From assembly GCA_963766335.1 (NCBI GenBank), contig CAVXZA010000002.1:1037386-1101385 (forward strand): a stretch of 64,000 bases of DNA, in the 5' to 3' direction. The position numbers were made by a program, and so were the translations under genes. This document shows, piece after piece, positions 11,400 through 61,026 of the stretch. The notes beneath the pieces were generated by a model that saw only the letters and a program-made list of their open reading frames with translations, did not search any database and was not told the origin of the DNA. The DNA is from an uncultured Clostridia bacterium. GTDB taxonomy: Bacteria; Bacillota; Clostridia; DUPQ01. Position 1 is the stretch's first letter; each line of letters starts with the position of its first letter.

Positions 11400-12158
11400 C
11401 TATTTTGATTTAATAATATCCTGCATGGAATATAGTCCTGCGGGTTTTCCTTTTATAAATTGTGCAGCCTTGATAGCACCGGAAGCAAAAATATCCCGTG
11501 ACATTGCTTCATGCCTTAGTTCTATGACTTCATCACGGCCTGCCAGAAGCACGGTATGTTCGCCTACAATCGTGCCTCCACGGACTGCGTGGATTCCAAG
11601 TTCGCCGCCGGTACGTTCTTTCCGGTATCCGGTTCTGTCATATACGGCTGTTTTTGGTTTTTCAAGGACGGAATTGATTCCGTCGGCAATTGCCAGGGCC
11701 GTGCCGCTTGGGGCATCGAGTTTTTTATTATGATGTTTTTCTATTATTTCTATATCAAAGAGTCCCTCTGTGAAAGCCGAAGCTGTTTTGGCAAGTTCAA
11801 TTAAAAGGTTTATCCCCATAGACATGTTTGCGCTATAAAAAACCGGAATAATTTTTGCTGCATTTGACAGGTCATCGACTTGTGTTCCCGAAAGCCCGGT
11901 TGTCGCCATTACCAGCGGGGTTTTGGTTTTCATGCAGTATGCAGTTACATTTGAAAAAGCTGAATGATGGGAAAAATCGATTACCACATCTGCTTCGGCA
12001 CCGCATTCGGATATATCGATGACTACAGGAATATCAAGATCTGTTGGAAGGTTGATATCGCAGCCTGCAATGATACTGACATTATTCATATCATTAACAA
12101 GATTCATTATGACGCGGCCCATCCTGCCGCCGCATCCGTTTAATAATATCTTAAGCAT
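11400..12158 (-). CDS. dapB: 4-hydroxy-tetrahydrodipicolinate reductase
   Basis: The N-terminus LNGCGGRMGR is a Rossmann fold, and the sequence is DapB-like throughout. Last gene of the asd-dapA-dapB operon. Confidence 0.9.
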   Translation of the reverse strand: MLKILLNGCGGRMGRVIMNLVNDMNNVSIIAGCDINLPTDLDIPVVIDISECGAEADVVIDFSHHSAFSNVTAYCMKTKTPLVMATTGLSGTQVDDLSNAAKIIPVFYSANMSMGINLLIELAKTASAFTEGLFDIEIIEKHHNKKLDAPSGTALAIADGINSVLEKPKTAVYDRTGYRKERTGGELGIHAVRGGTIVGEHTVLLAGRDEVIELRHEAMSRDIFASGAIKAAQFIKGKPAGLYSMQDIIKSK

Positions 12159-12166
12159 AATAACTC

Positions 12167-13051
12167 CTATAAAAGACCAAGGTTTTCCATAACTGCTTTA
12201 AGTGCTGCAGTATGGCCTTTTTCCATCTTAACCAAAGGCAACCTGACGTCACCGGTGCAAAGTCCCATTAGTTCAAGAGCTTTCTTTATCGGTATAGGAT
12301 TGACTTCCTGCCCAAGAGCTTTGATTAATGGAAAAATTTTATAATATCCCTCCATGGCTGATTGTGTATTGCCTTTAAGGAAAGTATTGGTAATGAATGC
12401 TGCTTGTGCCGGAATGACATTTGACATAACAGATATGAGTCCCTTGGCCCCAAGTGCCATAAATTCAAGGGTCATCTCGTCATTCCCCGACCAAACATAG
12501 AAATCATTACCCGTTCCATAGCCGACGTCTGCCATCTGGGAAAGATTGCATTCCTTGACACCGATGATATTCGGGACTTTGGATAACTCAATAATCGTAT
12601 CTGCATCTATGTTAATTACTGTTCTGGTAGGCACATTATACAGTATTATCGGAAGATCGACGCTTTTAGCGATAGCCGTATAATGAGCAATGAGACCTTT
12701 CTGGGTAGTTTTATTATAATATGGTGCTGCGGATAACAAGGCATCTGCACCTGCTTCCTGTGCCTTTTTACTGAGCTCTATAGAATGTGCGGTATCGTTG
12801 CTGCCGGTATTGGCAATTACCGGAACCCTTCCTGCTGTTTTTTTAATTCCGAAACGAACCACAGATAAATGCTCCGCGTCGGGCATTGTAGAAGATTCGC
12901 CCGTGGTACCGCAAAATAGCAGAGCATCGATGCCTTCCGCTATCTGGAATTCAATCATATTGCCAAGCGCCGTAAAGTCAACTGCACCTTCCCTGAATGG
13001 AGTTGCGACTGCCGTCGCAGTTCCTGTAAAAATCAAATTATTATTTCCCAT
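12167..13051 (-). CDS. dapA: 4-hydroxy-tetrahydrodipicolinate synthase
   Basis: The motif GTTGES and the DHDPS fold are present, with an RBS GGAG upstream. Confidence 0.9.
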   Translation of the reverse strand: MGNNNLIFTGTATAVATPFREGAVDFTALGNMIEFQIAEGIDALLFCGTTGESSTMPDAEHLSVVRFGIKKTAGRVPVIANTGSNDTAHSIELSKKAQEAGADALLSAAPYYNKTTQKGLIAHYTAIAKSVDLPIILYNVPTRTVINIDADTIIELSKVPNIIGVKECNLSQMADVGYGTGNDFYVWSGNDEMTLEFMALGAKGLISVMSNVIPAQAAFITNTFLKGNTQSAMEGYYKIFPLIKALGQEVNPIPIKKALELMGLCTGDVRLPLVKMEKGHTAALKAVMENLGLL

Positions 13052-13063
13052 TTTAATTAACTC

Positions 13064-14065
13064 CTAAGTATCTTCCCAAAACCTGATTAATTGCTGTGCT
13101 ATCTGAACTGCATTTGTAGCAGCACCTTTTCTTATGTTATCAGAAACAACCCACATGTTAAGACCATTGTCTACGCTTTCATCCCTTCGCAGACGTCCAA
13201 CAAAGGTTTCATCTTTTCCGGCGGCATCCCTCGCAAGAGGGTACACATTATTGGCCGGGTCATCCTGAACAACTATACCAGGAGACGATGCAAGAAGATT
13301 TCTCAATTCGTTCAGGTCGTAATTTTTGTCCAGCTCTACATTTATGGATTCACTATGGCTGCTAAAAACAGGAACACGGACTGTTGTAGCTGTAATCCGA
13401 AGATTAGGGGCATGCATAATCTTGCGGGTCTCCCATATCATTTTCATTTCTTCCTTGGTATAGCCGTTATCCATAAATACGTCGATATGCGGTATGCAGT
13501 TGCCTGCAATCGGATGAGGCATCAGGTAAGGTGCTTCACCGGCAAGCGACCTGCGTAGTTCATCCGTGCCTTTTTTGCCTGCGCCCGATACGGACTGATA
13601 AGTTGAATAAACGATTCTGTTTATTCCATATGCATCAAGCAGCGGCTTTAATGCAACGACCGCCTGTATTGTCGAGCAGTTCGGGTTTGCGATTATACCA
13701 TTGTGCATACCTATATCTTCCGGATTGACCTCGGGTACAACAAGCGGTACATCAGGATCCATCCTCCAGGCGCTGCTGTTATCTATTACCACTGTCCCTT
13801 TTGCAACGGCTGTCGGGGCATATTCCTTGCTGGTTCCCCCTCCTGCTGAAAAAAGTGCTATATCAATACCCCTGTCAAAAGAAGAGTGGGTAAGTTCTTC
13901 AACTATATACTCTTTTCCATTGAAAGATATTGACTGTCCGGCTGTCCTTGATGAAGCGAAAAAGTAAATATCCCCGATAGGAAGATTTCTTTCTTCCAGC
14001 ACTTTTATGAAGGTCCTTCCGACCATGCCGGTGGCACCTACTATTGCAAAACTGTATTTCTTCAT
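13064..14065 (-). CDS. asd: aspartate-semialdehyde dehydrogenase
   Basis: The N-terminus MKKYSFAIVGATGMVG and an active-site Cys region are present. Start chosen at ATG 14065 with GGAGG upstream; the longer track ORF was rejected. Confidence 0.9.
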   Translation of the reverse strand: MKKYSFAIVGATGMVGRTFIKVLEERNLPIGDIYFFASSRTAGQSISFNGKEYIVEELTHSSFDRGIDIALFSAGGGTSKEYAPTAVAKGTVVIDNSSAWRMDPDVPLVVPEVNPEDIGMHNGIIANPNCSTIQAVVALKPLLDAYGINRIVYSTYQSVSGAGKKGTDELRRSLAGEAPYLMPHPIAGNCIPHIDVFMDNGYTKEEMKMIWETRKIMHAPNLRITATTVRVPVFSSHSESINVELDKNYDLNELRNLLASSPGIVVQDDPANNVYPLARDAAGKDETFVGRLRRDESVDNGLNMWVVSDNIRKGAATNAVQIAQQLIRFWEDT

Positions 14066-14103
14066 CAGTTCCTCCCATACGCTACAATTATATACTAATT
14101 TAG

Positions 14104-14305
14104 TAAAAATAAAACCGGTACAGAGCACCGGCAAACACAAATCTGCGATAGTTCTCCATCATTTCGATGACAGTCGCAGGGCTGTTAACCCGGCAACCAG
14201 AACAGCATATCAGGATTATGCCTCCTTCGGCGGTTCCCCCTTTCACCATGCCGATGAAATCCTGATTTCCAAACATGGATACTGATAAAAACCGCGCCTC
14301 TACCA
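14104..14305 (-). promoter_or_regulatory. lysine riboswitch (L-box) with intrinsic terminator, leader of asd-dapA-dapB
   Basis: The minus strand reads GAGGCGC...GGTGAAAGGGGG...GCCGAAGGAGG...CTGTCA...TGGAGAACTATCG. This is followed by the hairpin GCCGGTGCTCTGTACCGGT plus a U-tract, matching the conserved L-box elements. Confidence 0.75.
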
Positions 14306-14379
14306 AATTTTATTAATTTTCATAGAGTATAACAAAATAGAGGAAAGCCTGCAACCTTTTATGGTGCTATAATCTTATT

Positions 14380-30994: not shown

Positions 30995-31140
30995 AAATTA
31001 ATAGATTCTTCAGGGCAGGGTGAAATTCCCGACCGGCGGTAGAGTCCGCGAGCGTAAGCTGAACCGGTTAGATTCCGGTACCGACAGTATAGTCTGGATG
31101 AAAGAAGTAATTTTTTTATACCCCTGAGGAGGGGTTTCTT
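30995..31140 (+). promoter_or_regulatory. FMN riboswitch (RFN element) with terminator
   Basis: TTCTTCAGGGCAGGGTGAAATTCCCGACCGGCGGTAGAGTCCGCGAGC...CCGACAGTATAGTCTGGATGAAAGAAG matches the RFN consensus. It is followed by the hairpin ACCCCTgaggAGGGGT plus a T-tract. Confidence 0.8.
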
Positions 31141-31164
31141 TATGCCCCGGGAAGGAAGGACCGT

Positions 31165-31812
31165 TTGGACAAGAGGAGACAAAAAACGATATGGATTGTA
31201 AAAGTTGCAATGCTTTCGGCAGTCGCAGCGATTCTTATGTATCTGGAAATACCCCTGCCGTTTGTCCCGCCGTTTTTAAGGTTGGATTTCAGCGATATCC
31301 CTGCACTGCTTGCAGGATTTGCAATGGGTCCGCTGGCGGGTGTCGCAGTATTGCTGGTAAAAAATGCAGTGCATGCAACAGCCTCATGGTCGTTTCTGGT
31401 GGGAGAACTGGCTAATTTCACAATAGGGGTGAGTTTTGTTCTGCCGGCGGCAATCATTTATCAAAGGCACAAAAACAAGAAAAGTGCAATTATAGGCATG
31501 CTGGTTGGAGGACTGACTATGGCTGTTACAGCTGGTTTTCTTAATGCATTTGTATTAATACCTCTATATGCTACCGTCCTGAATTTTCCGGTTGAAGCTA
31601 TTGTTGGAATGAGTAATGAAGTTAATCCTCTTATTACGGATTTAAAAACACTGATTTTCATTGGAATAACGCCGTTTAATATAGTGAAAGCGGCTGCAAA
31701 TATACTTATTGCGGCACTGATTTATAAACCGTTGTCGCCATACCTGCACCGCGATTCATTGAAAAAACCACCAAAATCCAGTCCGACAAATTATCCTACG
31801 GACACTAATTAA
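31165..31812 (+). CDS. ribU: ECF-transporter S component, probable riboflavin transporter RibU
   Basis: Small six-TM membrane protein directly downstream of an FMN riboswitch. The start is a tentative TTG at 31165 with AAGGAAGGA upstream; ATG 31210 is the alternative. Confidence 0.7.
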   Translation: MDKRRQKTIWIVKVAMLSAVAAILMYLEIPLPFVPPFLRLDFSDIPALLAGFAMGPLAGVAVLLVKNAVHATASWSFLVGELANFTIGVSFVLPAAIIYQRHKNKKSAIIGMLVGGLTMAVTAGFLNAFVLIPLYATVLNFPVEAIVGMSNEVNPLITDLKTLIFIGITPFNIVKAAANILIAALIYKPLSPYLHRDSLKKPPKSSPTNYPTDTN

Positions 31813-47775: not shown

Positions 47776-48339
47776 ATGGACAAGTTTTTAATTGCAGGAC
47801 TGGGGAATCCCGGGATAAGATACCGGAAAACACGCCATAACATGGGTTTTATGGCGCTTGACTATGTCTCGGAAAAATTTTCAGTAAAAGTTAAAAAATT
47901 AAAATGCCGCGCCCTGACAGGTGAAATTAACATCGACGGGGCGAAAGTTATCCTGGCAAAACCTCAGACATATATGAATGCAAGCGGCGAAAGCATCAGG
48001 GAGCTTCTAGCGTACTATAATTTAACCACGGATAACCTGATTGTCATCTATGATGATATGGACATACCTCTTGGGAAAGTCCGAATTCGAAAAAAAGGAG
48101 GGGCGGGAACCCATAACGGAATGAAATCACTCCTGTATCATCTGAAAACAGAGAACTTTATTAGAATACGCATCGGCATTAATGCAAATGAAGGTGAAGA
48201 TACAATCAGATATGTACTTAGCAAAATCACAAAAGACCAGCGCAAAGAAGCTTTCACAGGAATAGAAAAAGCCGCACAGGCATCTGTTGAAATCGTAAAA
48301 AACGGAATCAATGCAGCAATGAATAAATTTAATAAGTAA
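47776..48339 (+). CDS. pth: peptidyl-tRNA hydrolase
   Basis: The N-terminus LIAGLGNPG..Y..TRHNMGF is the Pth signature. Confidence 0.85.
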   Translation: MDKFLIAGLGNPGIRYRKTRHNMGFMALDYVSEKFSVKVKKLKCRALTGEINIDGAKVILAKPQTYMNASGESIRELLAYYNLTTDNLIVIYDDMDIPLGKVRIRKKGGAGTHNGMKSLLYHLKTENFIRIRIGINANEGEDTIRYVLSKITKDQRKEAFTGIEKAAQASVEIVKNGINAAMNKFNK

Positions 48340-48422: not shown

Positions 48423-51400
48423 ATGAAAATATTACTCAAACCGCTGCAGGACATCCCGCAGTTCGACGGGATTATAAAGACCATTTCAGCCGGAAAAGGA
48501 CCCGTTGGAGTCAACGGCCTGGTTGATCCGGCAAGGGCTATTTTCGCATATGCGCTTTTTCAGAAAACCGGAAGACGATGTCTAATACTAACCCACAGCC
48601 GGGTCAAGGCAAAAAAAATATATGAAGGACTGCGTATATTTGATTCCGACGGTGCATTGCATTTTCCCACAAGGGAACTGATGCCTTTCGAAATAGAAGC
48701 TCGAAGCCACGGTTATGAGACTGAAAGAGTAAATGCACTTTACAGATTCGCCATAAATGATTACTCGGTTGCCGTCGCTCCTATTGAAGCAATGTGCATA
48801 AGAATTCGGCAAAAAGGAGGAATTTCTTAAAAAAGTCATAAACATAGAGAAAGCAAAAGAGTATGAAAGGGACAAACTGTCCGAAGAGCCTTACTGGCAT
48901 CCGGTTATGAAAAATGCGACATGGTTGAAAGCGAAGGCCAGTTCGCGGTTCGCGGAGACATCTTTGATATATATTCACCCGGCAGCGACAGGCCATGCAG
49001 AATTAATTTTTTCGGAGATGAGGTAGAAAATATCAAATTTTTTGACCCGGGCACCCAGCTGTCGGATGAAGAAACTGCAATCTGTATTAATATTGCCTTG
49101 CAGCGAGCAGACCGGCTCACTAAAAGATATCATTGAAAAGTTAAAAGCAGTTCCAAATCCGCCAGCGCCGATTTCCTCGGATATAGAAAAGATTGAAAAC
49201 GGTCTTTTGCATTTTCCGATGGACAAACATTTCGCCTTGGTGGACGGAACCTGTTTTGCCACATCATATATAGATGAAGATACAATCATTATCCTTGATA
49301 ATGATAAACGCTGCCTGCGAAAAATGAATACCGTTCTTGAAAGAATACGGCACCACATGTGAAAAACTTCTTGAAACACAATCCGCCGTGCCTGAATCAT
49401 GCATGATGGTAGCCGGTCTGTTTGAATCAATGGGGAAAAGGGAACCTGGGATTATTATCCCCGACATAACCGGTCCGGATGACGAGTTTAGCCTTTACAG
49501 GCAATTTAGCATACTTACAAGGGAAAACCCGTCTTACGGCGGCAGGATGGACCTGCTTCTAGAGGACATCAGGAAATGGAAATCAAAAGGGCGCAGAACA
49601 GCTCTTATTGCACCGTCAAAAAAGAGCAGCCATATATTATCCGATTACCTTGCATCCAATAATATAGACATACACGGCCGAAACAATTATAACGGAGACA
49701 TACACGCAGGAACAGTTGTCATGCTGGACAACGGACCTGCTGAAGGATTTGAAATACTTGAAGCCGGCCTTTGTGTGGTCGGGAGCGGTAAAATTTTCAG
49801 AAAAAGCAAGAAAGAGCAGACAGAACGGAAAAAGCAAAAAGGCATGGATTTATTCGCTGACTTAAAACCAGGGGATTTCGTTGTCCATGATTACCATGGA
49901 ATAGGCAAATACATAGGTATAGAGAATATCAAAGCCGCGGGAATACGCCGCGATTATGTAAAGGTTGAATATAAAAAGAGCGACTACGTATATATACCGG
50001 TAGATAAACTTGATTCAATCCAAAAATACATTGGAAGCGGGGGAAGGGCCCCGAGGCTGTCAATACTGGGCGGCAAAGAGTGGGAGAATACAAAAGCGCG
50101 GGTTAAGGAATCCGTCAAGAACATTGCCAAAGAACTTGTTGAACTATATGCCAAACGTAAAGCTAACAAGGGGCACAGATATTCTGCCGATACAATATGG
50201 CAGGTGTCATTTGAAGAAGAATTCCCGTTTGAAGAGACAAACGACCAACTGCGCTGCATTGATGAAATAAAAGGGGATATGGAATCCGATATCATAATGG
50301 ACAGGCTTCTCTGCGGGGATGTAGGCTATGGAAAAACGGAAGTGGCGCTGCGGGCTGCATTTAAGGCGGTTATGGATGGAAGACAGGTGGCATTCCTGGT
50401 TCCTACAACTGTGCTTGCCTACCAGCATTACAATACATTTAAAAGCAGGATGAAGAATTTCCCTGTTAACATCGAACTTATGTGCCGTTTCAGAAGCAAA
50501 AAACAGCAGCAGCGGACATTAGAGGGTTTAAGGGCGGGAAGCGTTGACATTGTGGTCGGCACGCACAGGCTGCTTCAAAAAGACATTGTGTTCAAAAAGC
50601 TTGGACTGCTTGTAGTAGACGAAGAGCAGAGGTTCGGTGTAGAGCATAAAGAAACAATTAAGAACTATAAAAACGACATTGATGTCCTTACCCTGACTGC
50701 AACTCCCATTCCGCGGACGCTTCACATGTCGCTGTCAGGTATACGTGACATAAGCGTCATTGAAGATCCGCCTGCAAAGCGGTTCCCCGTCCAGACATAT
50801 GTAATGGAATATGACCCGGATGTAATAAGGGATGCAGTCGACCGTGAAATCAGCAGGGGAGGCCAGGTTTTCTACCTTTATAACCGTGTCAGGGAAATGG
50901 ACAGCAAGTATGCTAAACTTAAACAACTCCTGGGCGATGAGGTAAGGATAGGAATCGCCCACGGGCAGATGGATGAAAATAAGCTTGAAAATGTAATGGT
51001 TGATTTCATCAAAGGCGATTATGATGTCCTTCTATGTACAACAATTATAGAATCAGGCCTGGATATCCCGAATGTCAATACAATGATTATTGAAGACTCG
51101 GACAGGATGGGACTGTCGCAGCTCTACCAGATAAGGGGCAGGGTAGGCAGGTCCGACAAAGTCGCCTATGCATACATAACCCATAAACATGGGAAAGTTA
51201 TAACAGAGGACGCATCTAAAAGACTTGAAGCAATAAGGGAATTCACGGAGTTCGGTTCAGGATTCAAAGTGGCAATGCGCGACCTTGAAATCAGGGGCGC
51301 CGGAAATCTTCTCGGCGCAAACCAGCATGGACATCTTGAAAGGATTGGCTACGATCTATATGTAAGGATACTTAAACAGGGCTGTCAAGGAACTCGGCGG

Positions 51401-51915
51401 GGAAAGTTGAAGAAGAAGAGATTCGGACAGCTGCACTGTTGAACTTAATATAAATGCATTTATTGACAAAGAATACATCAGCAATGACCTGATGCGAATG
51501 GAAATGTATAAGAAAATAGCGGTTGTTTCAGATGAAAAACAGAAAAAGAGACTGCTTAGATGAAATGACAGACCGTTTCGGAACACCGCCTGCACGAAAC
51601 TATGGTGCTGCTTGAAGCGGCTCTTGTAAAAAACCTTGCAGCGGCATGTGGTATTGAATCCGTAACTAAGAAACAAATCAGATATAATATTCACTTTTGC
51701 AGAAGGACAGATTCCCGCCTCCTGAAATTCTTGCCAGGCTTCCTGAAATCCTGCCGGGAAGGGCGGTGGTCAGTATGGGAGTTAAGCCCGGAATCAGGCT
51801 TAATAATTTCAAACGGGAAGATGTAGATTTTTCGGCAATATATAAATTGCTGGCATGTATTGAAAATCAGCAAATCATAATATATAGAAACAGTATGTTA
51901 TCTTGCAAAAGATGA
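48423..51915 (+). pseudogene. mfd: transcription-repair coupling factor Mfd, disrupted by multiple frameshifts
   Basis: Mfd-homologous segments occur in alternating frames (48423-48830 f0, about 48815-48915 other frame, 48921-49136 f0, 49042-49362 f1, 49337-51442 f2, then at least four more frame changes to 51915). The helicase motifs DVGYGKTEVALRAAF and the GDFVVHDYHGIGKY RID region are recognisable. Confidence 0.8.
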
Positions 51916-52151
51916 TTATAAAACTATATTTATGATTAGAAATGTGCACAAAATCATTAGAAAAATCCTATATTTAACAAAAAGACAACATTTGTTACAA
52001 AATTGTAAAATTATTAATACATAATTATATAAAAATATCGCAAAAACACAATATTTTGTGGTATATTAGGGTATATAAAACACAAGTATTAGTGGTTCAT
52101 TCAAACTGTTGTCAATACAAGATTGGTCAATTTGCTTTATAGAATCTAAAA

Positions 52152-52177
52152 ATTGTTAAAAATTGTTAAAATATGTT
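52152..52177. repeat. short tandem direct repeat (AAAAATTGTTA x2) in the AT-rich intergenic region upstream of the pilin gene
   Basis: The sequence aaaaattgttaaaaattgttaaaat is seen directly. Confidence 0.6.
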
Positions 52178-52298
52178 ATTATAAGTTGCATTTTTTTTAT
52201 CGAAGTGTAATAATTAGTAGTAGATAAATGGGGATGTTAGCATAGATAAAACCCGGAAAGCATAATCCGGGACAACAAATTTTATGGAGGGTTACAAA

Positions 52299-52676
52299 AT
52301 GCTACAGAATTTAATGAGGAAAATGAAAAAAGGAAACAAGGGGTTCACTCTTGTTGAATTGATGATTGTTGTTGTAATCATCGGTATCTTGATTGCAATT
52401 GCAATTCCTATATACAGAATATCCAGACAACTGCAGAAAGAGAGCATGTCAGGCTAACATAAGAGCAATTATGTCACAGCTTGAAGTTTATAAAGCGGAT
52501 ACTAGATGCTGGAGACGGTATTATATCCATTAACAGCTGAATATGCAGACTTTCATAGACCATGCTATTTCGAGGGAGCAACACCTGAATGTCCAACTAG
52601 CTGACCAGGATATACTTATACCAGTGCAGTGGGGCAACTTATTCATTGACTTGTCCAAATGGACACACTAAGCTGT
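52299..52676 (+). pseudogene. pilA: type IV major pilin (PilA-like), frameshifted
   Basis: Class III signal MRKMKKGNKG/FTLVELMIVVVIIGILIAIAIP is followed, in other frames, by CQANIRAIMSQLEVYKADT and a C-terminal YQCSGATYSLTCPNGHTKL. There are at least 3 frame changes. Confidence 0.65.
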
Positions 52677-52769
52677 AAGTAGCAATGTACTTGTTAGTCA
52701 TTTAGTAATTTTATTTTCCCGGCGAGGTTATCCCGCCGGGGAATAAGTTTTATATTTCAGAACGGGTGG

Positions 52770-53283
52770 GGTATTTTTATGGATGAAAAAGAAAAAAAAT
52801 CCGGTTTTAAGAAGTTTTTAAAAGAAAACCGTTCCCTTGTATTTACCATTCCGGTATTTATAGTATTAGTAGTTGCTGTAATTTTGGTCTATGTTTTAAC
52901 AGGATAATAAGACAGCCGATAATCAGCCGGCTGCCACACCTACTCCTACTGCAACTGAGCAGCAGACTGAACCTACGCCTGCGCCTTCACAATCCGCATC
53001 AGAATCAAGTGGAACAGAAGTCACTACGCTTCCCCAGGATGAGCGCGATAAAGATGATTCTGAAATAATGCGGAATCCTTTTGCAGCCCCATACAAGGTA
53101 AGCGGCATCATATATGATGAAAAAGGCGGAAGCATTGCCATAATTGAAGCAGAAAACAAGACTTTCATTGTAAAAGCCGATGATCAGGTCGGCGAATATT
53201 TTAAAGTTTTAAATATAGAATCAGACAAGGTAGTTTTGGAAATAGAGGGCCAGGAAATTGTACTGGCCATTTCCGGTGAATGA
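52770..53283 (+). pseudogene. PilP-like pilus assembly protein (TM anchor + linker + beta domain), one frameshift
   Basis: MDEKEKKSGFKKFLKENRSLVFTIPVFIVLVVAV in frame 0 continues in frame +1 as a Pro/Thr/Gln linker and ...RNPFAAPYKVSGIIYDEKGGSIAIIE.... Confidence 0.4.
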
Positions 53284-53301
53284 ATATTGGAGGTGTTCTA
53301 A

Positions 53302-54182
53302 TTGGGACGCAGTAAAAAAACCAACACGATGATGAAAACGCTTGCCGTTGTTTTGGCAATGGCTGTTATTGTCGCTTTCGGAGGAACCGCCGCAGCAGCT
53401 ACGGGAGCTGTGCCGGCGGGCATCAGCTACCATGACGACACGGTATTCAAAGCTGACAAGGGTGCTGATGTATCTATTGAAATAGAAGATGCCGATATCA
53501 GGGACATACTGTCCCTTTTTGCGACTAAACTCGGTGTTAATATGGTATATCTTGGCCAAAGTTTTAAGACAAGTTATACCATATCTGAAGTTGATGCCAC
53601 GACAGCATTTGAGATATTTATCAAAAGCTCCGGTGTTAACGGGGAAGCGCTTAGCTTTATCCGCGACGGCGACCTTCTTTTGGTAGGTCCGGCCGGGGAC
53701 ATGGCCAATAGTTTTTCAGATATGCTGGTGTTCACAAGTTTTGAACTTGAGTACATGACGGCACAGGAACTTTCCGGATTATCTGAGCCAGCTGGGGATT
53801 TATGTTAACGAGCTTTACCATAGACCAGATGACTGACAGAATTTTTGTACAGGGTTTCCCATATGAAGTCGCAAAAGTTAATGAAGTGGTTAATATGCTG
53901 GACAATGATGCCTTTTATCCGGACGGCGGCACGGCATTTAACCTTGTTGCATATAACTTGAATTATATCAGCGCATCTACACTTGACGGCGTAATCGGCG
54001 AACTGGGAATAGAGGCTGATACCATTGAATTGGGATCAAGTCCTTCAACCTTATGGGTAAGTGCGGATACCGACCAGCATACAGTAATATCCCAGTTAAT
54101 AACAAAACTTGATACAGCAGCGAATATAAGCGATAACGAATTCGGTGTATACAGACTAAAATATATTAATATAGACTTGTAA
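53302..54182 (+). pseudogene. secretin-N-domain-like (PilQ/GspD N0/N1-like) protein, frameshifted near 53800
   Basis: Signal peptide present. IEIEDADIRDILSLFATKLGVNMVY resembles the secretin N0/STN domain. The second half, ending VYRLKYINIDL, is N1-like. The ORFs 53302-53808 and 53802-54182 are in different frames. Confidence 0.4.
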
Positions 54183-54190
54183 ACAATGCA

Positions 54191-54817
54191 ATGAGTGAGT
54201 TGGGTTTATGGACCACTGCAGAAGGTGAATCGGGCATGGTCACTGTAATACCGAATACAGTTTTAAGTGAAGACCCTTATGCAATACTGGTTAATTTCAA
54301 ATATATAGATAAAGAAATGGTAGATTTCCTGATTGCAGAGCTGGATACACCTTCAAATAATCCTGAAGACCCGGCATTCTTTATTTATACATTTACGAAT
54401 ATGTCTGCTGAAACAGCCCTCGGCAGGATTGATGCATTCGGTGGGAAAAAAGCGTTTGATTCAGATGAAGTTGAATTCAAGGAATTTTCATTCTCAGGAC
54501 TTGGCAAACAGCTTATGGTGCTTTGCACTAAGAGTGAAGAGGCTGATGTAAGAGCATTTCTTGCAGAGATTGATACTCCGGGTACAACGATGATAGTTGT
54601 TGTTGACACAAACGGCGGAGATATTCAGGCAAGAATCCGGCTGATTGACCGAATACCGCTTATTTCATATATATCCGGAGTGCCGGAAAATCATTTTAAA
54701 GTATCAGGAGACATATCAAAAAGCGCTTCACCGCAATATGTAATGTGGGTTGAGGATACACCTGAAAATATTGAAAAGGTTAAGGCTGCAATAGCAAATA
54801 TTGATTCAGGCGAATAA
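54191..54817 (+). CDS. hypothetical protein with secretin-N-like repeats (no beta-barrel secretin domain)
   Basis: 208 aa. It has similar short alpha/beta N-domain-like segments (EADVRAFLAEIDTP...IQARIRLIDRIPL). Confidence 0.35.
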   Translation: MSELGLWTTAEGESGMVTVIPNTVLSEDPYAILVNFKYIDKEMVDFLIAELDTPSNNPEDPAFFIYTFTNMSAETALGRIDAFGGKKAFDSDEVEFKEFSFSGLGKQLMVLCTKSEEADVRAFLAEIDTPGTTMIVVVDTNGGDIQARIRLIDRIPLISYISGVPENHFKVSGDISKSASPQYVMWVEDTPENIEKVKAAIANIDSGE

Positions 54818-54835
54818 TGACCGGCTGAGGATAAA

Positions 54836-56014
54836 ATGACAATATACCAAAGAAACGAAAGTGATAAATATGTGACATCCATTGTGGAAATGCTCCGGCC
54901 GATGACTGAAAGAAAGATTTCTGACCTTCATCTTGTTGCCGGAGTTCCACCCTGTTATAGAGTAAACACAGACCTTGAGCAGCAGGACATGCCTAAGCTT
55001 ACGCCGGAGAACCTGAACTATCTTCTATCCGATATATTATCGCCTATTGACTGGGAACGTCTGGATAAGGAAATGGAATTGGATTTTTCGTATTCAATAC
55101 CCGGCATAGCCAGATACAGAGGAAATGTTATGAAGCAGAGAGGTTCATATGCAGTTGTTTTCAGGGCAGTTCCTTATGAAACTCCTCAGTTCGGAACCCT
55201 TGGACTTCCGGATCAGTAAGGGAGTTATGTAACTTAAAAAGGGGCTTGGTACTCGTTACCGGGCCAACCGGAAGTGGGAAATCCACAACACTGGCTGCCA
55301 TGATTGATATAATCAACAGAACAAGGAAGCTTAAATATTGTAACAATTGAAGATCCCATAGAGTATCTTCACAGGCACAAAAAATCAACAGTCAGGCAGA
55401 GAGAAATAGGGGCAGATACACACTCTTTCGGAAAGGCACTAAGGCATGTATTACGACATGACCCGGATGTAATACTGATTGGTGAAATGCGTGACCTTGA
55501 CAGTATATCCATTGCCTTGACAGCAGCAGAAACGGGACATCTTGTTTTTTCAACATTGCACACCCAGACGGCACCGCTTACTATAAACAGGATAATTGAT
55601 GCATTTGGTGAAAATGAAAGAAAGCAGATAAGACAGCAGCTGGCATCTACGGTTCAGGGAGTTGTGTCACAGCAGCTTATGACGAGAAAAGGCGGCGGCA
55701 GGATAGTCGCATGTGAAATGATGAAAGGTGTTCCGGCAATAAGAAACCTAATAAGAGAAGGAAAGGAACACCAGCTATACAGTGTTATGCAGACGGGCCA
55801 GGAATACGGAATGCAGACAATGGACTATGCTTTGGTTGATATATATAGAAAAGGAAAAATCAGTGAAAAAACACTGTATGAACATTGCATTGACATCAGG
55901 AAGTTGAAAGACTTCTTGACCAAGAAAAGCATAATCCAGTCCAGACGGATGGCGATTGGTAAAGGAGCAATAGATGCCCATATACAAGTACAAATGCATA
56001 ACAAGAAACAGTGA
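54836..56014 (+). pseudogene. pilT: twitching-motility ATPase PilT, frameshifted (at least 2 sites near 55210 and 55315)
   Basis: PilT N-domain in f1. Walker [23 protein letters not shown] in another frame. EDPIEYLH...REIGADTHSF...DPDVILIGEMRD...AAETGHLVFSTLHT in a third frame. Confidence 0.7.
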
Positions 56015-57180
56015 AACCATATTGGGCAAGATAAGTGCTACCAGCACCAATGCTGCTATTGACAGACTGCGGAAAATGAACTTACACTGTAAATATAAAG
56101 CAATCACGCTTTGATGGATTGCAGGGTTTTTTAAAAATGAAAGACCTGTTAAAGTAGGTGATCTTGGTCTTTTCAGCAGGCAGCTTGCATCTATGATTGG
56201 TGCAGGTATTCCGGTTACCAGGGCAATATCAACAATAGCAAGGCAGACAAAAAATCCATCATTTAAAAAAGCTCTTGAAAATATAGCATCAAATGTTGAA
56301 AGCGGAATGAATCTGACTGATTCATTCAGTGGTTATCCGCATATATTTGATGATTTATATGTAAAACTAATTGAATCGGGTGAAATAGGCGGAATGCTTG
56401 AAGGTTCACTGCTCAGAATTGCAGAACAGTTGCAAAAAGACAAAAGCTTAAAGACAGTATTAAATCAGCGACATTTTATCCCAAGATGGTACTTGGCTTT
56501 GCAGTTGTGGTAGCTATCGGAATGATGCTGTTTCTTGTTCCGACTTTCAAGGGAATGGTTAAAGCTGAAGCAGAGATTCCGGGTATAACTCAATTTGTAT
56601 TTGGTCTTTCGGATTCATTTAGAGCCAACTGGTATTGGTATATTATCGGAGTAATTGTTATATTTGCAGCAATTAAAATATTTATATCAAGTAAAATTGG
56701 CAAAAAAATCTGGGATAAAATCAAACCTAAAATACCTGTTTTCGGGCAGATAACAAAAAAAACCATAATTGCCCGTTTTTCAAGAACTTTTTCAACTTTA
56801 CTTGATGGAGGTATACCTGTAATTCAGGCAATGCAAAGTGCCGGAGATACTGCCGGAAGCACAGTTGTCGCAATAAAAATAAGAGAAGCCAGTTTGAACG
56901 TAGAACAGGGTAATAGAATTTCAGATGAACTTGAAAAGCAGGATATATTTCCCGGTACAGTTATACATATGATAGCGGTAGGTGAAGAAACAGGGCAGCT
57001 TCCTGAATTACTGGAAAGGGTTGCCGGGTTTTATGAAGAAGAGGTTGGAACTTTATCAAAGACACTTTCGTCCGTAATAGAACCACTTATGCTTGTGGTT
57101 GTTGGTCTTATTGGTAGGAGGGATACTGATATCCTTGTACCTTCCGATATTCACAGCTGTATCGATCAAATGTAATGAGG
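55978..57180 (+). pseudogene. pilC: type IV pilus platform protein PilC (GspF family), frameshifted (at least 4 sites)
   Basis: The N-terminus MPIYKYKCITRNSETILGKISATSTNAAIDRLRKMNLH and two GspF domains lie in different frames. The C-terminal LVGGILISLYLPIFTAVSIK is recoverable only in a third frame. Confidence 0.7.
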
Positions 57181-57187
57181 TGTTGAT

Positions 57188-58127
57188 ATGATTATAAAAA
57201 GAATAGCAGGGGTTGAGTTCAACGATGATACTGCTAAGGCGGTAGAAATTTATGGTTCTGAAAAGTCGCATAAGATTACTGCTCTTGGCAATGTTATATA
57301 TCTGAGAATGTCATAACTGACGGTGTCTTGGTAAATAATGAAGCCGCTATTGCTGTATTGAAGGAATTATGGAAAAAATATTCTTTTAAAACCAAGGAAG
57401 TAATATTTGGTGTTGACAATAAATATGTGCTTGTCAGATATGCAGATATTGTAAGAACAGCTGATAAAAAGTTTCAAAATGATGTAGAGGCTCAGATACA
57501 GCAGTTTCTGCCTGTTGATAAAAATTCAGTAGAGACCGATTACTTCCCCTGAATGAACACCGAAGACGAGGAAGGTAAAAAGAAAACAAAAACACTAATT
57601 GTTGCTGCAGGGAAGAAAATGCTGAGTGAATATATTGAGATATTCAAAGGAGCAAACTTAGAATAGAGGATATTGATGTTAATACATTGGCAATATACAA
57701 ATTGATTCCGGAAATGAAAAAGACAAAGGAACGGTTATAATTAATTTAAAAAAGATATGTTCAATCTTCTGATTGTAAGAGATGGTCAGCCGTTACTGGC
57801 AAGAAATATAATGATTGATACAAGCAGTGCACTTAATGAAACCGAATTTGTTCAGGAATATTTTGAAGCAATAAACAAAGACATAATATCTTCCCTTGCA
57901 TATTACAATTCAATTACCAGGATTATATTGAGAATATATATATAACCGGATATGGTGTATGGAACGAGGGAATGGTACAGTTCCTAAGAGAAACAACCAA
58001 AGCAGATGTAAAAGTTGTTAATCCTTTCATAAATGAAAAAAACAAGTCGGGAACACCTGACGTGCCAAGACCCTATGAATTTGCTGTTGCATATGCACTG
58101 GCACAGAGGGGATTGGAGAGTGAATGA
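57188..58127 (+). pseudogene. pilM: pilus assembly protein PilM (actin-like ATPase), frameshifted (at least 6 sites)
   Basis: PilM-like pieces are scattered over three frames: MIIKRIAGVEFNDDTAKAVEI, LVNNEAAIAVLKELWKK, EEGKKKTKTLIVAAGKKMLSEYIEIFKGANL, IENIYITGYGVWNEGMVQFLRETTKADVKVVNPF. Confidence 0.65.
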
Positions 58128-58128
58128 T

Positions 58129-58583
58129 ATGACAAGATTAGAATCAGCCTTCTTCCTGCTGAACTAAAAAGACAATCCTCCATGATGAAGATATGGACAA
58201 TACTTGCCCTTGTATTGGCAATACTAGCCTTAATCATGTTGGCTGGAAACATTCTCATTAATTTCTGGTTGAAAATACCGGTTGCAGAACTGGAGTCTTT
58301 GAAGAATCAGAACAAAAGCATGACTGAAAATATTGGTAGGTTGTACTATATACAGGAAATGTTTGATGCGATAGAACTCAACAATAGAATTATTAAAGAA
58401 TTAAGCGGGAATAATCCCGATTGGTCTTATCTCTTAGATGAAACTCGCGACATGACAGTATATGGTATAAATATGAGTCGAATGGAAATTATCACAGTCG
58501 GAGAAGGACAGGGATGTTCCATAACCGGAAACACGAGGAATGTAGACAATTTGAATGTTTGGATCAAACATATGGAATCTTGA
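58129..58583 (+). pseudogene. pilN: pilus assembly protein PilN, frameshift immediately after the start codon
   Basis: KIRISLLPAELK (PilN INLLP-type motif) plus a TM helix and coiled coil. ATG 58129 is in a different frame from the body (58131 onward). Confidence 0.55.
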
Positions 58584-58708
58584 TGGCGTAGAATCGGTTT
58601 CCATATGATAAATATAACAACCACGCCTTCATCCGGCGGTGGATTAATTTTCCATTTTGATGCGATGGTAATCATTGCACGTTGGAACCAGGAATAGGAG
58701 GAAGAGAG

Positions 58709-59288
58709 ATGCCGAAGTATAAAAAGAAAAATACTGTTATGAAATCAGATAATAAAAACGGCAAAAAAGGGTCTGCTATTGGGAACCGTGGTATTTCTAC
58801 TGTCGACATTATAATAATCATAGTCGCCGGTATTGTTATAATTGTATCCGGAATATTTCTCTTCATGAATTTCAGAACATTGAAGCAGGTAAACGAGGAC
58901 ATTACTGAAATGAAACAGATTATTGATGCAAAAGCAGGATACCCTTGATAAACTGATTGAACTTGGTCAAAACGAGGACGCCTTAAAGGAAAATTACGAG
59001 CGGAATAAAATGTTTGTTCCGGAAGAAAAAGATGAAGTAGGAATAATAGCAGATGTTACAGGAATAGTGGAGAATGACGGAGGAATTTTCAGAACAATAA
59101 CCTATAGTGCAGAAATTGTTAAGGAAAACGGAGTTACTGATGTCCCATTCACAATAAGGATAAACAGCACTTATGAACAATTAAGTGAGATTGTTAAAAA
59201 CTTGGGCAGAACCAACAGGTTGTATGTAATTGATTCAATTACATATTATAGAAACAAGCAGCGAAATTCCATTTTAAGCACGATATAG
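58709..59288 (+). pseudogene. pilO: pilus assembly protein PilO-like, one frameshift near 58930
   Basis: AGGAGGAAG RBS. An N-terminal TM helix and coiled coil (58709-58948) continue in another frame as the C-terminal domain (58923-59288). Confidence 0.5.
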
Positions 59289-59332
59289 AGATGCATGCAT
59301 ACTATAAAAAACCATAAATAGGAAGCGAATTA

Positions 59333-61026
59333 ATGCAAGGAAGAATAAGAAGTCAGAAACTCGGGGAAGTGCTAATCCAGAAGGGCACCATAACGGCGGA
59401 CCAACTGGAAGAGGCGCTTTCTTTGGTAAAGAACACAACAGATAAGTCCATGCTTGTTGGCGAGGCTCTTGGTTGAACTTGGTTATTGTTCTGAAAAACA
59501 TATTGCCAGGACCATGGCGCATAAATCCAAAGCCAAGTATGCTAATCTTAATGATGTTAAGATTAACATGCAGGCATCCAATCTGCTGTCGCCTGGCCTT
59601 GCTTTAAGATATGGCGCTCTTCCCATTGGATTTCAGCAGAAGACAATGAGAAACTCATTGTTGCCATGCAGAATCCCACGGATCTTATGACAATAGATGA
59701 CTTGATTCTTTTAACAGGTTATGATATAGAACCTGTAGTGGTAGAGGACAGGCAGCTGCGTAACAGCCTTAGAAAATTTTACAAACATGAGCACCGCTGA
59801 CATTGATGCATATGATGAAGAAGATTTTAATACAGCTGAGGAAGAAGAAGATACACTGGCCCGGCCGGCTGTAAAGCTTGCCAATCAGGTATTAAACCAA
59901 GCCATGAAATCCCTTGCAAGTGATGTTCACATAGAACCACACGAAAAAAAATTAAGATAAGATATAGAATTGACGGTGTATCTGCATGACATCATGCAGC
60001 AGTCCGATAAGGATGTCCGCTTCAATAGTATCCCGATTTAAGGTTCTGGGCAATATGGATATTGCGGAACGCAGGGTTCCGCAGGACGGCAGGATGACTT
60101 TCAGAAGCGAAGGCCGTATTGCTGATATAAGGATAGCTACTCTGCCTACTGTTTTTGGAGAAAAAGTTACGCTTAGGATTGTTGACAGGAACTCCAAGCT
60201 TTTAACATTAGATAAATTGGGAATGCCGGAGAAACAACGCGAAGCTTTTTATCAGACAATAAAAGCGCCATATGGCTTTATATTGATTACCGGACCAACA
60301 GGAAGCGGAAAAAGCACAACGCTTTATGCAGCTCTTACGAGATTGAATTCAGCGGATAAAAACATTATTACACTAGAAGATCCGGTTGAAAGACGAATTG
60401 ACGGGCTTAATCAGATACAGATAAACGAAAGAGCAGGGCTGATTTTTTCTTCCGGCCTTAGGTCTATATTAAGAAGTGACCCGGATATAGTTATGATTGG
60501 TGAAATCAGGGACCGTGAAACTGCTAAGATTGCAGTTGAGTCTGCATTGACAGGCCATTTGGTTTTGTCAACCCTTCACACTAATAATTCAGCGGGTGCA
60601 TTAACAAGACTAGGGGAAATGGGTGTAGAACCATACCTTACTTCATCTTCCTTAATAGGGGTAATAGCCCAAAGGTTACTAAGGGTTCTTTGCGATGATT
60701 GTAAAAAGGAGTATACTATAAGCAGGAATGACCTGCTAAAGACATTCCCGGATTTTCCGATAGAGGACAAAGAGAAGGAGATTAAAATATATAAAGCCGA
60801 AGGTTGCGTTCAATGTAACAATACAGGCTATAAAGGCAGAATGGGTGTTTATGAATTCCTTACTGTAACGGATACAATGCAGGAACTTATATTAAAAAAA
60901 GCATCTACCCTGGATATTGAGGAAACTGCCATAAATGAAGGGATGGTCACTCTAAGGGCCGACGGTATGAACAAGATTAAAGAAGGTCGTACGTCGATTG
61001 AAGAATTCTTCAGGGTCATAGTCTAA
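59333..61026 (+). pseudogene. pilB: type IV pilus assembly ATPase PilB (GspE family), frameshifted in the N-terminal 650 nt (at least 5 sites); ATPase core intact
   Basis: The N1 domain MQGRIRSQKLGEVLIQKGTITADQLEEALSL... is broken over three frames. The ORF 59986-61026 has Walker [13 protein letters not shown], His box and tetracysteine motifs. Confidence 0.75.

Follow-up and report, generated by a model that had tools for sequence, protein, structure and literature searches.

Results

The mfd gene lies downstream of pth and is deposited in a dozen frame segments

The window, by which we mean the whole stretch of 64,000 nucleotides that was analyzed from an uncultured Clostridia bacterium, carries an intact pth gene followed on the same strand by an interrupted mfd gene. 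The features of the locus are as follows.

47776-48339, plus strand: pth (peptidyl-tRNA hydrolase), intact, the clean flank upstream of mfd.
48423-51884, plus strand: mfd (transcription-repair coupling factor), whole gene; about 12 frame segments in the deposited form, and a full-length Mfd of 1,146 aa when the extra bases are removed.
48423-48809, plus strand: mfd segment 1, codons 1 to ~129, in frame and 5' of the first indel.
48808-49337, plus strand: mfd frameshift zone 1, UvrB-homology module; five single-base insertions (~48808, 48879, 48896, 49077 and 49336).
49337-51371, plus strand: mfd clean block, RNAP-interaction domain and SF2 translocase; part of a 701-aa ORF that matches database protein P0001.
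51371-51884, plus strand: mfd frameshift zone 2, linker and C-terminal TRCF/D7 domain; six single-base insertions (~51371, 51555, 51595, 51666, 51708 and 51855) and an ambiguous -2/+2 at 51405/51425.

The pth gene gave a full-length tblastn match to the pth genes of relatives in a single frame, and a frameshift-aware alignment returned zero frameshifts. The pth-mfd order is shared with relatives L001, L084 and L085. Over mfd, the ORF map consists of frames that rotate along the plus strand (48423-48830, 48921-49136, 49042-49362 and 49337-51442, followed by 51523-51615, 51602-51826 and 51697-51915). The 701-aa ORF at 49337-51442 is 100% identical to P0001, a 679-aa product of the source genome, and 87-92% identical to the intact Mfd proteins P0002-P0005 (1,131-1,148 aa) of uncultured Clostridia, with P0002 at 92%. 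In a search of 5.8 billion protein clusters, the closest non-self match to the mfd ORF had 92% protein identity and ~76% DNA identity, and the searched collections yielded no same-species assembly with which mfd could be compared (best non-self protein identity, 92%). Within the window, intact Mfd proteins used as tblastn queries matched this locus alone, with no second mfd copy.

Frame breaks in mfd were mapped by DNA alignment to the intact orthologous genes of L001 and L002 and by frameshift-aware protein-to-DNA alignment against three orthologues. Taken together, these alignments resolve the gene into about 12 frame segments that are separated by 11-12 single-base insertions, with zero deletions. 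Three of the extra bases are placed to within a few positions (~48808-10, 51371-4 and 51555-8), and the placement of the additional local -2/+2 is ambiguous. The insertions fall into two clusters, 48808-49337 and 51371-51855, and the intervening 2,035 bp contain none. No insertion site in mfd lies in a homopolymer run of four or more. The initial annotation had located mfd downstream of pth and had counted at least nine frame segments; both statements hold, the first through the TIGR00580 score of the corrected protein given below, the intact pth and the synteny in relatives, and the second through the ORF map and the alignments.

Frame correction yields a complete Mfd

Once the extra bases are removed, mfd encodes a protein of ~1,146 aa with zero internal stops; from end to end it is ~87-88% identical to P0002, an intact orthologue. 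With the last insertion taken out, the true stop most likely lies at ~51882-51884; the final ORF that runs on to 51915 is out of frame. The corrected protein scored 1084.1 bits against TIGR00580, the mfd equivalog model (curated cutoff, 800 bits), in an alignment that spans profile positions 2-906 of 907. Every RecG model scored below its own cutoff.

Pfam searches of the raw fragments detected UvrB_inter, CarD_TRCF_RID, DEAD and Helicase_C, and searches of the corrected protein detected these four together with TRCF, all five complete. The UvrB_inter domain (PF17757) is partial in the raw fragment 48921-49133 (positions 28-79 of 91) and complete after correction (1-89 of 91). The RNAP-interaction, DEAD and Helicase_C domains (PF02559, PF00270 and PF00271) are each complete inside the uninterrupted 701-aa ORF. 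The C-terminal TRCF domain (PF03461, D7) was not detected by Pfam in the raw fragments and was recovered at positions 1-88 of 95 (E = 1.2e-21) after frame correction. The earlier statement that the Mfd domains are recognizable is accurate; four were detected in the raw sequence, and TRCF solely in the corrected frame.

Judged by its sequence, the frame-corrected gene is unremarkable within the Mfd/TRCF family. It resembles the proteins covered by TIGR00580 and the pth-mfd arrangement of Bacillota in its full architecture (UvrB-homology module, RNAP-interaction domain, SF2 translocase and C-terminal TRCF domain), in its 87-92% identity to the intact orthologues found in MAGs of uncultured Clostridia and in its place directly downstream of pth. 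All defining features of the family are present except an uninterrupted deposited ORF, which here is divided into about 12 frame segments; beyond the 11-12 single-base insertions that break it, no difference from the family was found.

The corrected gene retains selective constraint

Synonymous sites are saturated between the window and its relatives (pS 0.72-0.86), so pN and counts of changed invariant residues were used instead of dN/dS. Residues invariant among nine intact relatives were scored in the corrected mfd, and each relative was scored likewise by leave-one-out. No invariant residue is changed in either of the shifted zones (0/51 in zone 1 and 0/32 in zone 2, or 0/83 together) or in the clean core (0/397). 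The N-terminal segment has kept 35 of 36, and the whole gene has thus changed at one of 516 invariant positions. Every intact relative carries at least as many private changes as the mfd of the window.

Between the window and its relatives, pN ranges from 0.11 to 0.19 in zone 1 and from 0.13 to 0.28 in zone 2, no higher than the values of 0.21 and 0.31 for L001 against L002, whose genes are both intact. The nonsynonymous branch derived from pN for the window lineage is the shortest in both shifted zones. Relaxed constraint, sought in mfd as nonsense codons, excess nonsynonymous change and loss of invariant residues, was not observed.

The frame breaks belong to a tract that crosses ten genes

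The frame breaks continue beyond mfd into a type IV pilus operon, through the following features.

48810-60006, plus strand: indel-rich tract; ~42 frame-breaking indels of 1-2 bases in 11.2 kb, from mfd codon ~129 to pilB codon ~223.
52284-52690, plus strand: type IV pilin-like gene with an N_methyl motif; at least three frameshifts; an intact 126-aa gene in L084.
52779-54814, plus strand: a gene of 165 aa (+1 at 52905) and one of 504 aa that matches Secretin_N faintly; both intact in L084, L005 and L086.
54836-57173, plus strand: PilT-like ATPase (-1 at 55213, +1 at 55333 and -1 at 55895) and PilC (four to five indels).
57188-59314, plus strand: PilM (five deletions), a PilN-like gene and PilO; all frameshifted, and intact in L086 and L088.
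59333-61023, plus strand: PilB (562 aa in relatives); six indels in the N-terminal ~223 codons, the last at ~60006, and a clean C-terminal 346 aa (P0122).

The tract runs through mfd and nine type IV pilus genes, and both of its ends lie inside genes. The pilus genes that are broken here are intact and syntenic in relatives, and the proteins of the syntenic relatives L005, L084, L086 and L088 match the operon in shifting frames. The 504-aa gene carries +1 changes at 53779 and ~53807 and a -1 at ~54175; in the PilT-like ATPase, the Walker A motif is lost from the reading frame through the -1/+1 pair at 55213/55333. When the frame is followed through nine genes of the tract, the corrected path contains zero nonsense codons in 3,839 and its products are 70-91% identical to intact orthologues. 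The indel load amounts to ~0.4% of tract length, with no detectable substitution damage.

No frame break was found in the remaining ~53 kb, and every gene tested there has full-length domain coverage. Between 43.9 and 48.4 kb, the proteins of relatives match in single frames, and all genes tested at 1-48 kb and 60-64 kb have end-to-end domain coverage. Pairs of overlapping ORFs within 1-48 kb (724/1778, 2631/3115, 9035/9801, 31111/31763 and others) were considered as candidate frameshifts and rejected, as Pfam assigned each ORF to a separate complete gene. Structured RNA was likewise rejected as a cause of the tract, the only Rfam hits being two riboswitches far from the locus. No meaningful repeats, IS or mobile elements were found in the tract.

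Sequence context was scored for 20 single-base insertions in mfd and downstream whose placement is unambiguous with both references. Fourteen have no adjacent identical base, four lie in runs of two and two in runs of three, with none in a longer run; singleton bases make up 50% of the tract overall.

Three further properties of the tract are unexplained. The direction of the indels is locally one-sided, with only insertions in mfd and only deletions in pilM. Indels favor stretches that are less conserved among intact relatives, with a local identity of 0.69 at the sites compared to a background of 0.77 (permutation P ~0.001). Finally, a 2-kb core of mfd is clean within the tract; clean stretches of 0.9-1 kb also separate the indel clusters in the pilus genes.

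Discussion

We examined an mfd gene that is deposited in about 12 frame segments and found that the removal of single bases yields a conserved, full-length Mfd. Based on our results, it is very likely that the frame breaks are consensus or assembly errors in one poor stretch of 11.2 kb, and not mutations. Several observations favor this reading. The genes are restored by the removal or addition of single bases, with no accompanying substitution damage. The errors cluster by position in the assembly and not by gene, with ~42 in 11.2 kb and zero detected in the other ~53 kb. If intact genes underlie a poor consensus, Mfd and the type IV pilus operon are very probably both functional in this organism, as the sequence of the corrected genes would predict.

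The initial annotation had called mfd a pseudogene and had proposed that, if the frameshifts are real, the organism lacks transcription-coupled repair. The first proposal is not supported by the corrected gene, which has no stops and no changed residue among the 83 invariant positions of the shifted zones, nor by the insertion-only, non-homopolymer spectrum and the regional extent of the damage. The second depended on the first and is very probably wrong, given that the indels are read here as an artefact.

Genuine and very recent pseudogenization of mfd and the adjacent pilus operon, which would leave the organism without Mfd-dependent transcription-coupled repair, is an alternative that we consider unlikely. 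The frameshifts do stand in the sequence as deposited and carry over to the proteins derived from it (P0001, 679 aa, and P0122, 346 aa), and mfd and pili are generally known to be dispensable in many laboratory settings. However, drift that had gone on until a dozen frameshifts were fixed would also be expected to leave nonsense codons and substitutions at constrained sites, and mfd shows neither. The corrected tract contains no nonsense codons, the shifted zones of mfd have lost none of their 83 invariant residues, and in both zones the nonsynonymous branch that leads to the window is shorter than any other. A dozen fixed frameshifts without any substitution are not what neutral decay would produce.

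The kind and the distribution of the indels argue against this alternative as well. Indel mutation in bacteria is deletion-biased and driven by slippage, and it is concentrated in homopolymers or repeats. The mfd gene shows the opposite spectrum, 11-12 insertions and zero deletions with none in homopolymers, and 14 of the 20 insertions scored in mfd and downstream have no identical base next to them. Furthermore, the damage is not specific to a gene. The ~42 indels form a continuous tract through ten genes that is confined to 11.2 kb and has both ends within genes, with none detected in the remaining 53 kb. For all ~42 indels to be real, the lineage would need to have lost both Mfd-dependent repair and its type IV pilus very recently through a localized burst of indel-only, non-slippage mutation. 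A process of this kind has, to our knowledge, not been reported from bacteria, and we regard this history as highly unlikely.

Comparison with known losses of mfd leads in the same direction. The reduced genomes of host-restricted bacteria include cases of true mfd loss, as is generally known, and these share with the window an mfd locus that has no intact ORF. In contrast to the window, true loss is accompanied by substitutions, nonsense codons, deletions and genome-wide erosion; none of these was seen here, and the flanking 53 kb are intact.

It could also be proposed that the 701-aa central ORF (49,337-51,442), with its RNAP-interaction domain and translocase, is a stand-alone truncated Mfd whose flanking modules have decayed. 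Such a core would be able to displace RNA polymerase but would not recruit UvrA. The ORF is the sole long clean block in mfd and contains complete RID, DEAD and Helicase_C domains, and loss of autoinhibitory modules is generally known to de-repress E. coli Mfd. The flanks, however, have not decayed, since they contain no stops and have kept all 83 of their invariant residues, and no Shine-Dalgarno-like sequence precedes either the ATG at ~49403 or the TTG at 49337. The clean blocks of 0.9-1 kb in the pilus genes indicate, moreover, that the block in mfd is not special. We therefore find both a truncated Mfd and the activity that it would have very improbable. Programmed ribosomal frameshifting or transcriptional slippage that yields full-length Mfd from the deposited sequence has next to nothing in its favor apart from the perfectly conserved corrected frame, as the 11-12 sites share no slippery motif and have no A/T run of four or more anywhere, the ORFs of relatives are continuous at all of these positions, and the same random indels occur in both directions in nine unrelated neighboring genes; the contexts of the sites in effect rule this reading out.

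Taken at face value, the annotation of this region would suggest that a lineage of uncultured Clostridia has lost both a repair factor that is near-universal and an entire pilus operon, and it would lower completeness estimates for the genome. The main value of the mfd case is one of caution, and if the frame breaks are errors as we propose, it holds no new biology. The combination of invariant-site conservation after frame correction, the direction and context of the indels, and the extent of the tract compared with the limits of genes provides a means of separating artefact from pseudogene that requires no reads.

The technical cause proposed for the indels is inferred from the sequence. The proteins P0001 (679 aa) and P0122 (346 aa) both derive from a single contig of 2,450,829 bp, which is typical of long-read assembly. 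Positions 48,810-60,006 are most likely a segment of low base-level accuracy inside an otherwise accurate single-contig assembly of 2.45 Mb. As a conjecture, its source could be a long-read consensus of low depth or of mixed strains, or a bridge that was left unpolished when a hybrid assembly was made. Either a low-depth or strain-heterogeneous consensus or an unpolished hybrid bridge might also fit the one-sided direction of the indels and their bias toward less conserved sites, although this too is conjectural. Classic homopolymer error of the nanopore, 454 or Ion type was considered and rejected, since homopolymers are not where the insertions lie.

Long-read assemblies are documented to contain indel errors that break genes apart (PMC12007338, PMC8574707). 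As in the errors described in the Kastor (PMC12007338) and ARAMIS (PMC8574707) studies of long-read and hybrid assemblies, small indels here split proteins into apparent pseudogenes while the codons stay gene-like, and intact homologues expose them. Error-prone reads carry random small indels (PMC8574707), and the spectrum of the tract resembles these. Residual long-read errors are reported to be mostly associated with homopolymers (PMC8574707). The insertions in the tract are of the non-homopolymer kind, and a low-depth or mixed consensus would therefore fit them better than ordinary residual error. Furthermore, published residual errors are spread genome-wide. Those in the window suggest a consensus that is locally of low depth, mixed or unpolished, rather than systematic base-calling error, in that they are gathered in one 11.2-kb tract, avoid homopolymers and are locally one-sided in direction.

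Genes downstream of mfd

Directly 3' of the transcription-repair coupling factor gene, mfd, lies a complete type-IV-pilus-like operon, and the pth-mfd-pil synteny is common to several uncultured Clostridia relatives (loci L084, L005, L086 and L088). Within the window, all genes of this operon are frameshifted as far as pilB codon ~223.

52284-61023, plus strand: pilus operon, in the order pilin, 165-aa gene, 504-aa gene, PilT-like ATPase, PilC, PilM, PilN-like, PilO, PilB
53302-54814, plus strand: ~504-aa protein of this operon (L084, 13225-14742; L086, 575-2089)
61002-63882, plus strand: two large intact genes after pilB

The ~504-aa protein displays a weak to faint match to Secretin_N, and no secretin C-domain match was found in the proteins of the window, L084 or L086. 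Both genes that follow pilB lie beyond the tract of frame-breaking indels. For the first, of 360 aa, no Pfam match was found, and the second, of 597 aa, carries a prepilin methylation motif at its N-terminus and is probably a large minor pilin.

Distribution of the indels

Within the tract (48810-60006), the direction of the indels is one-sided locally, as mfd contains 11-12 insertions and no deletions whereas pilM contains no insertions and five deletions. Additionally, the indels favour stretches that are less conserved among intact relatives (local identity of 0.69 versus 0.77; permutation P ~0.001). The one-sided direction and the low-conservation bias may stem from a consensus called on mixed strains or at low depth.

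Other features

At the equivalent position 5' of pth, the window encodes an ABC-transporter ATPase, whereas L001, the contig of the closest relative, carries an IS200-type Y1 transposase gene (119-532), ~0.5 kb from pth. Two riboswitches were also identified in the window.

31002-31113, plus strand: FMN riboswitch (113 bits, full-length model)
14141-14310, minus strand: lysine riboswitch (87 bits)
13067-14158, minus strand: semialdehyde-dehydrogenase-like gene
12170-13063, minus strand: 294-aa gene
11403-12197, minus strand: dapB

Immediately 3' of the FMN riboswitch is a gene for an ECF-transporter substrate-specific component (31111-31809), probably a riboflavin uptake gene. The lysine riboswitch precedes the minus-strand operon containing dapB, which looks like a lysine-biosynthesis operon.
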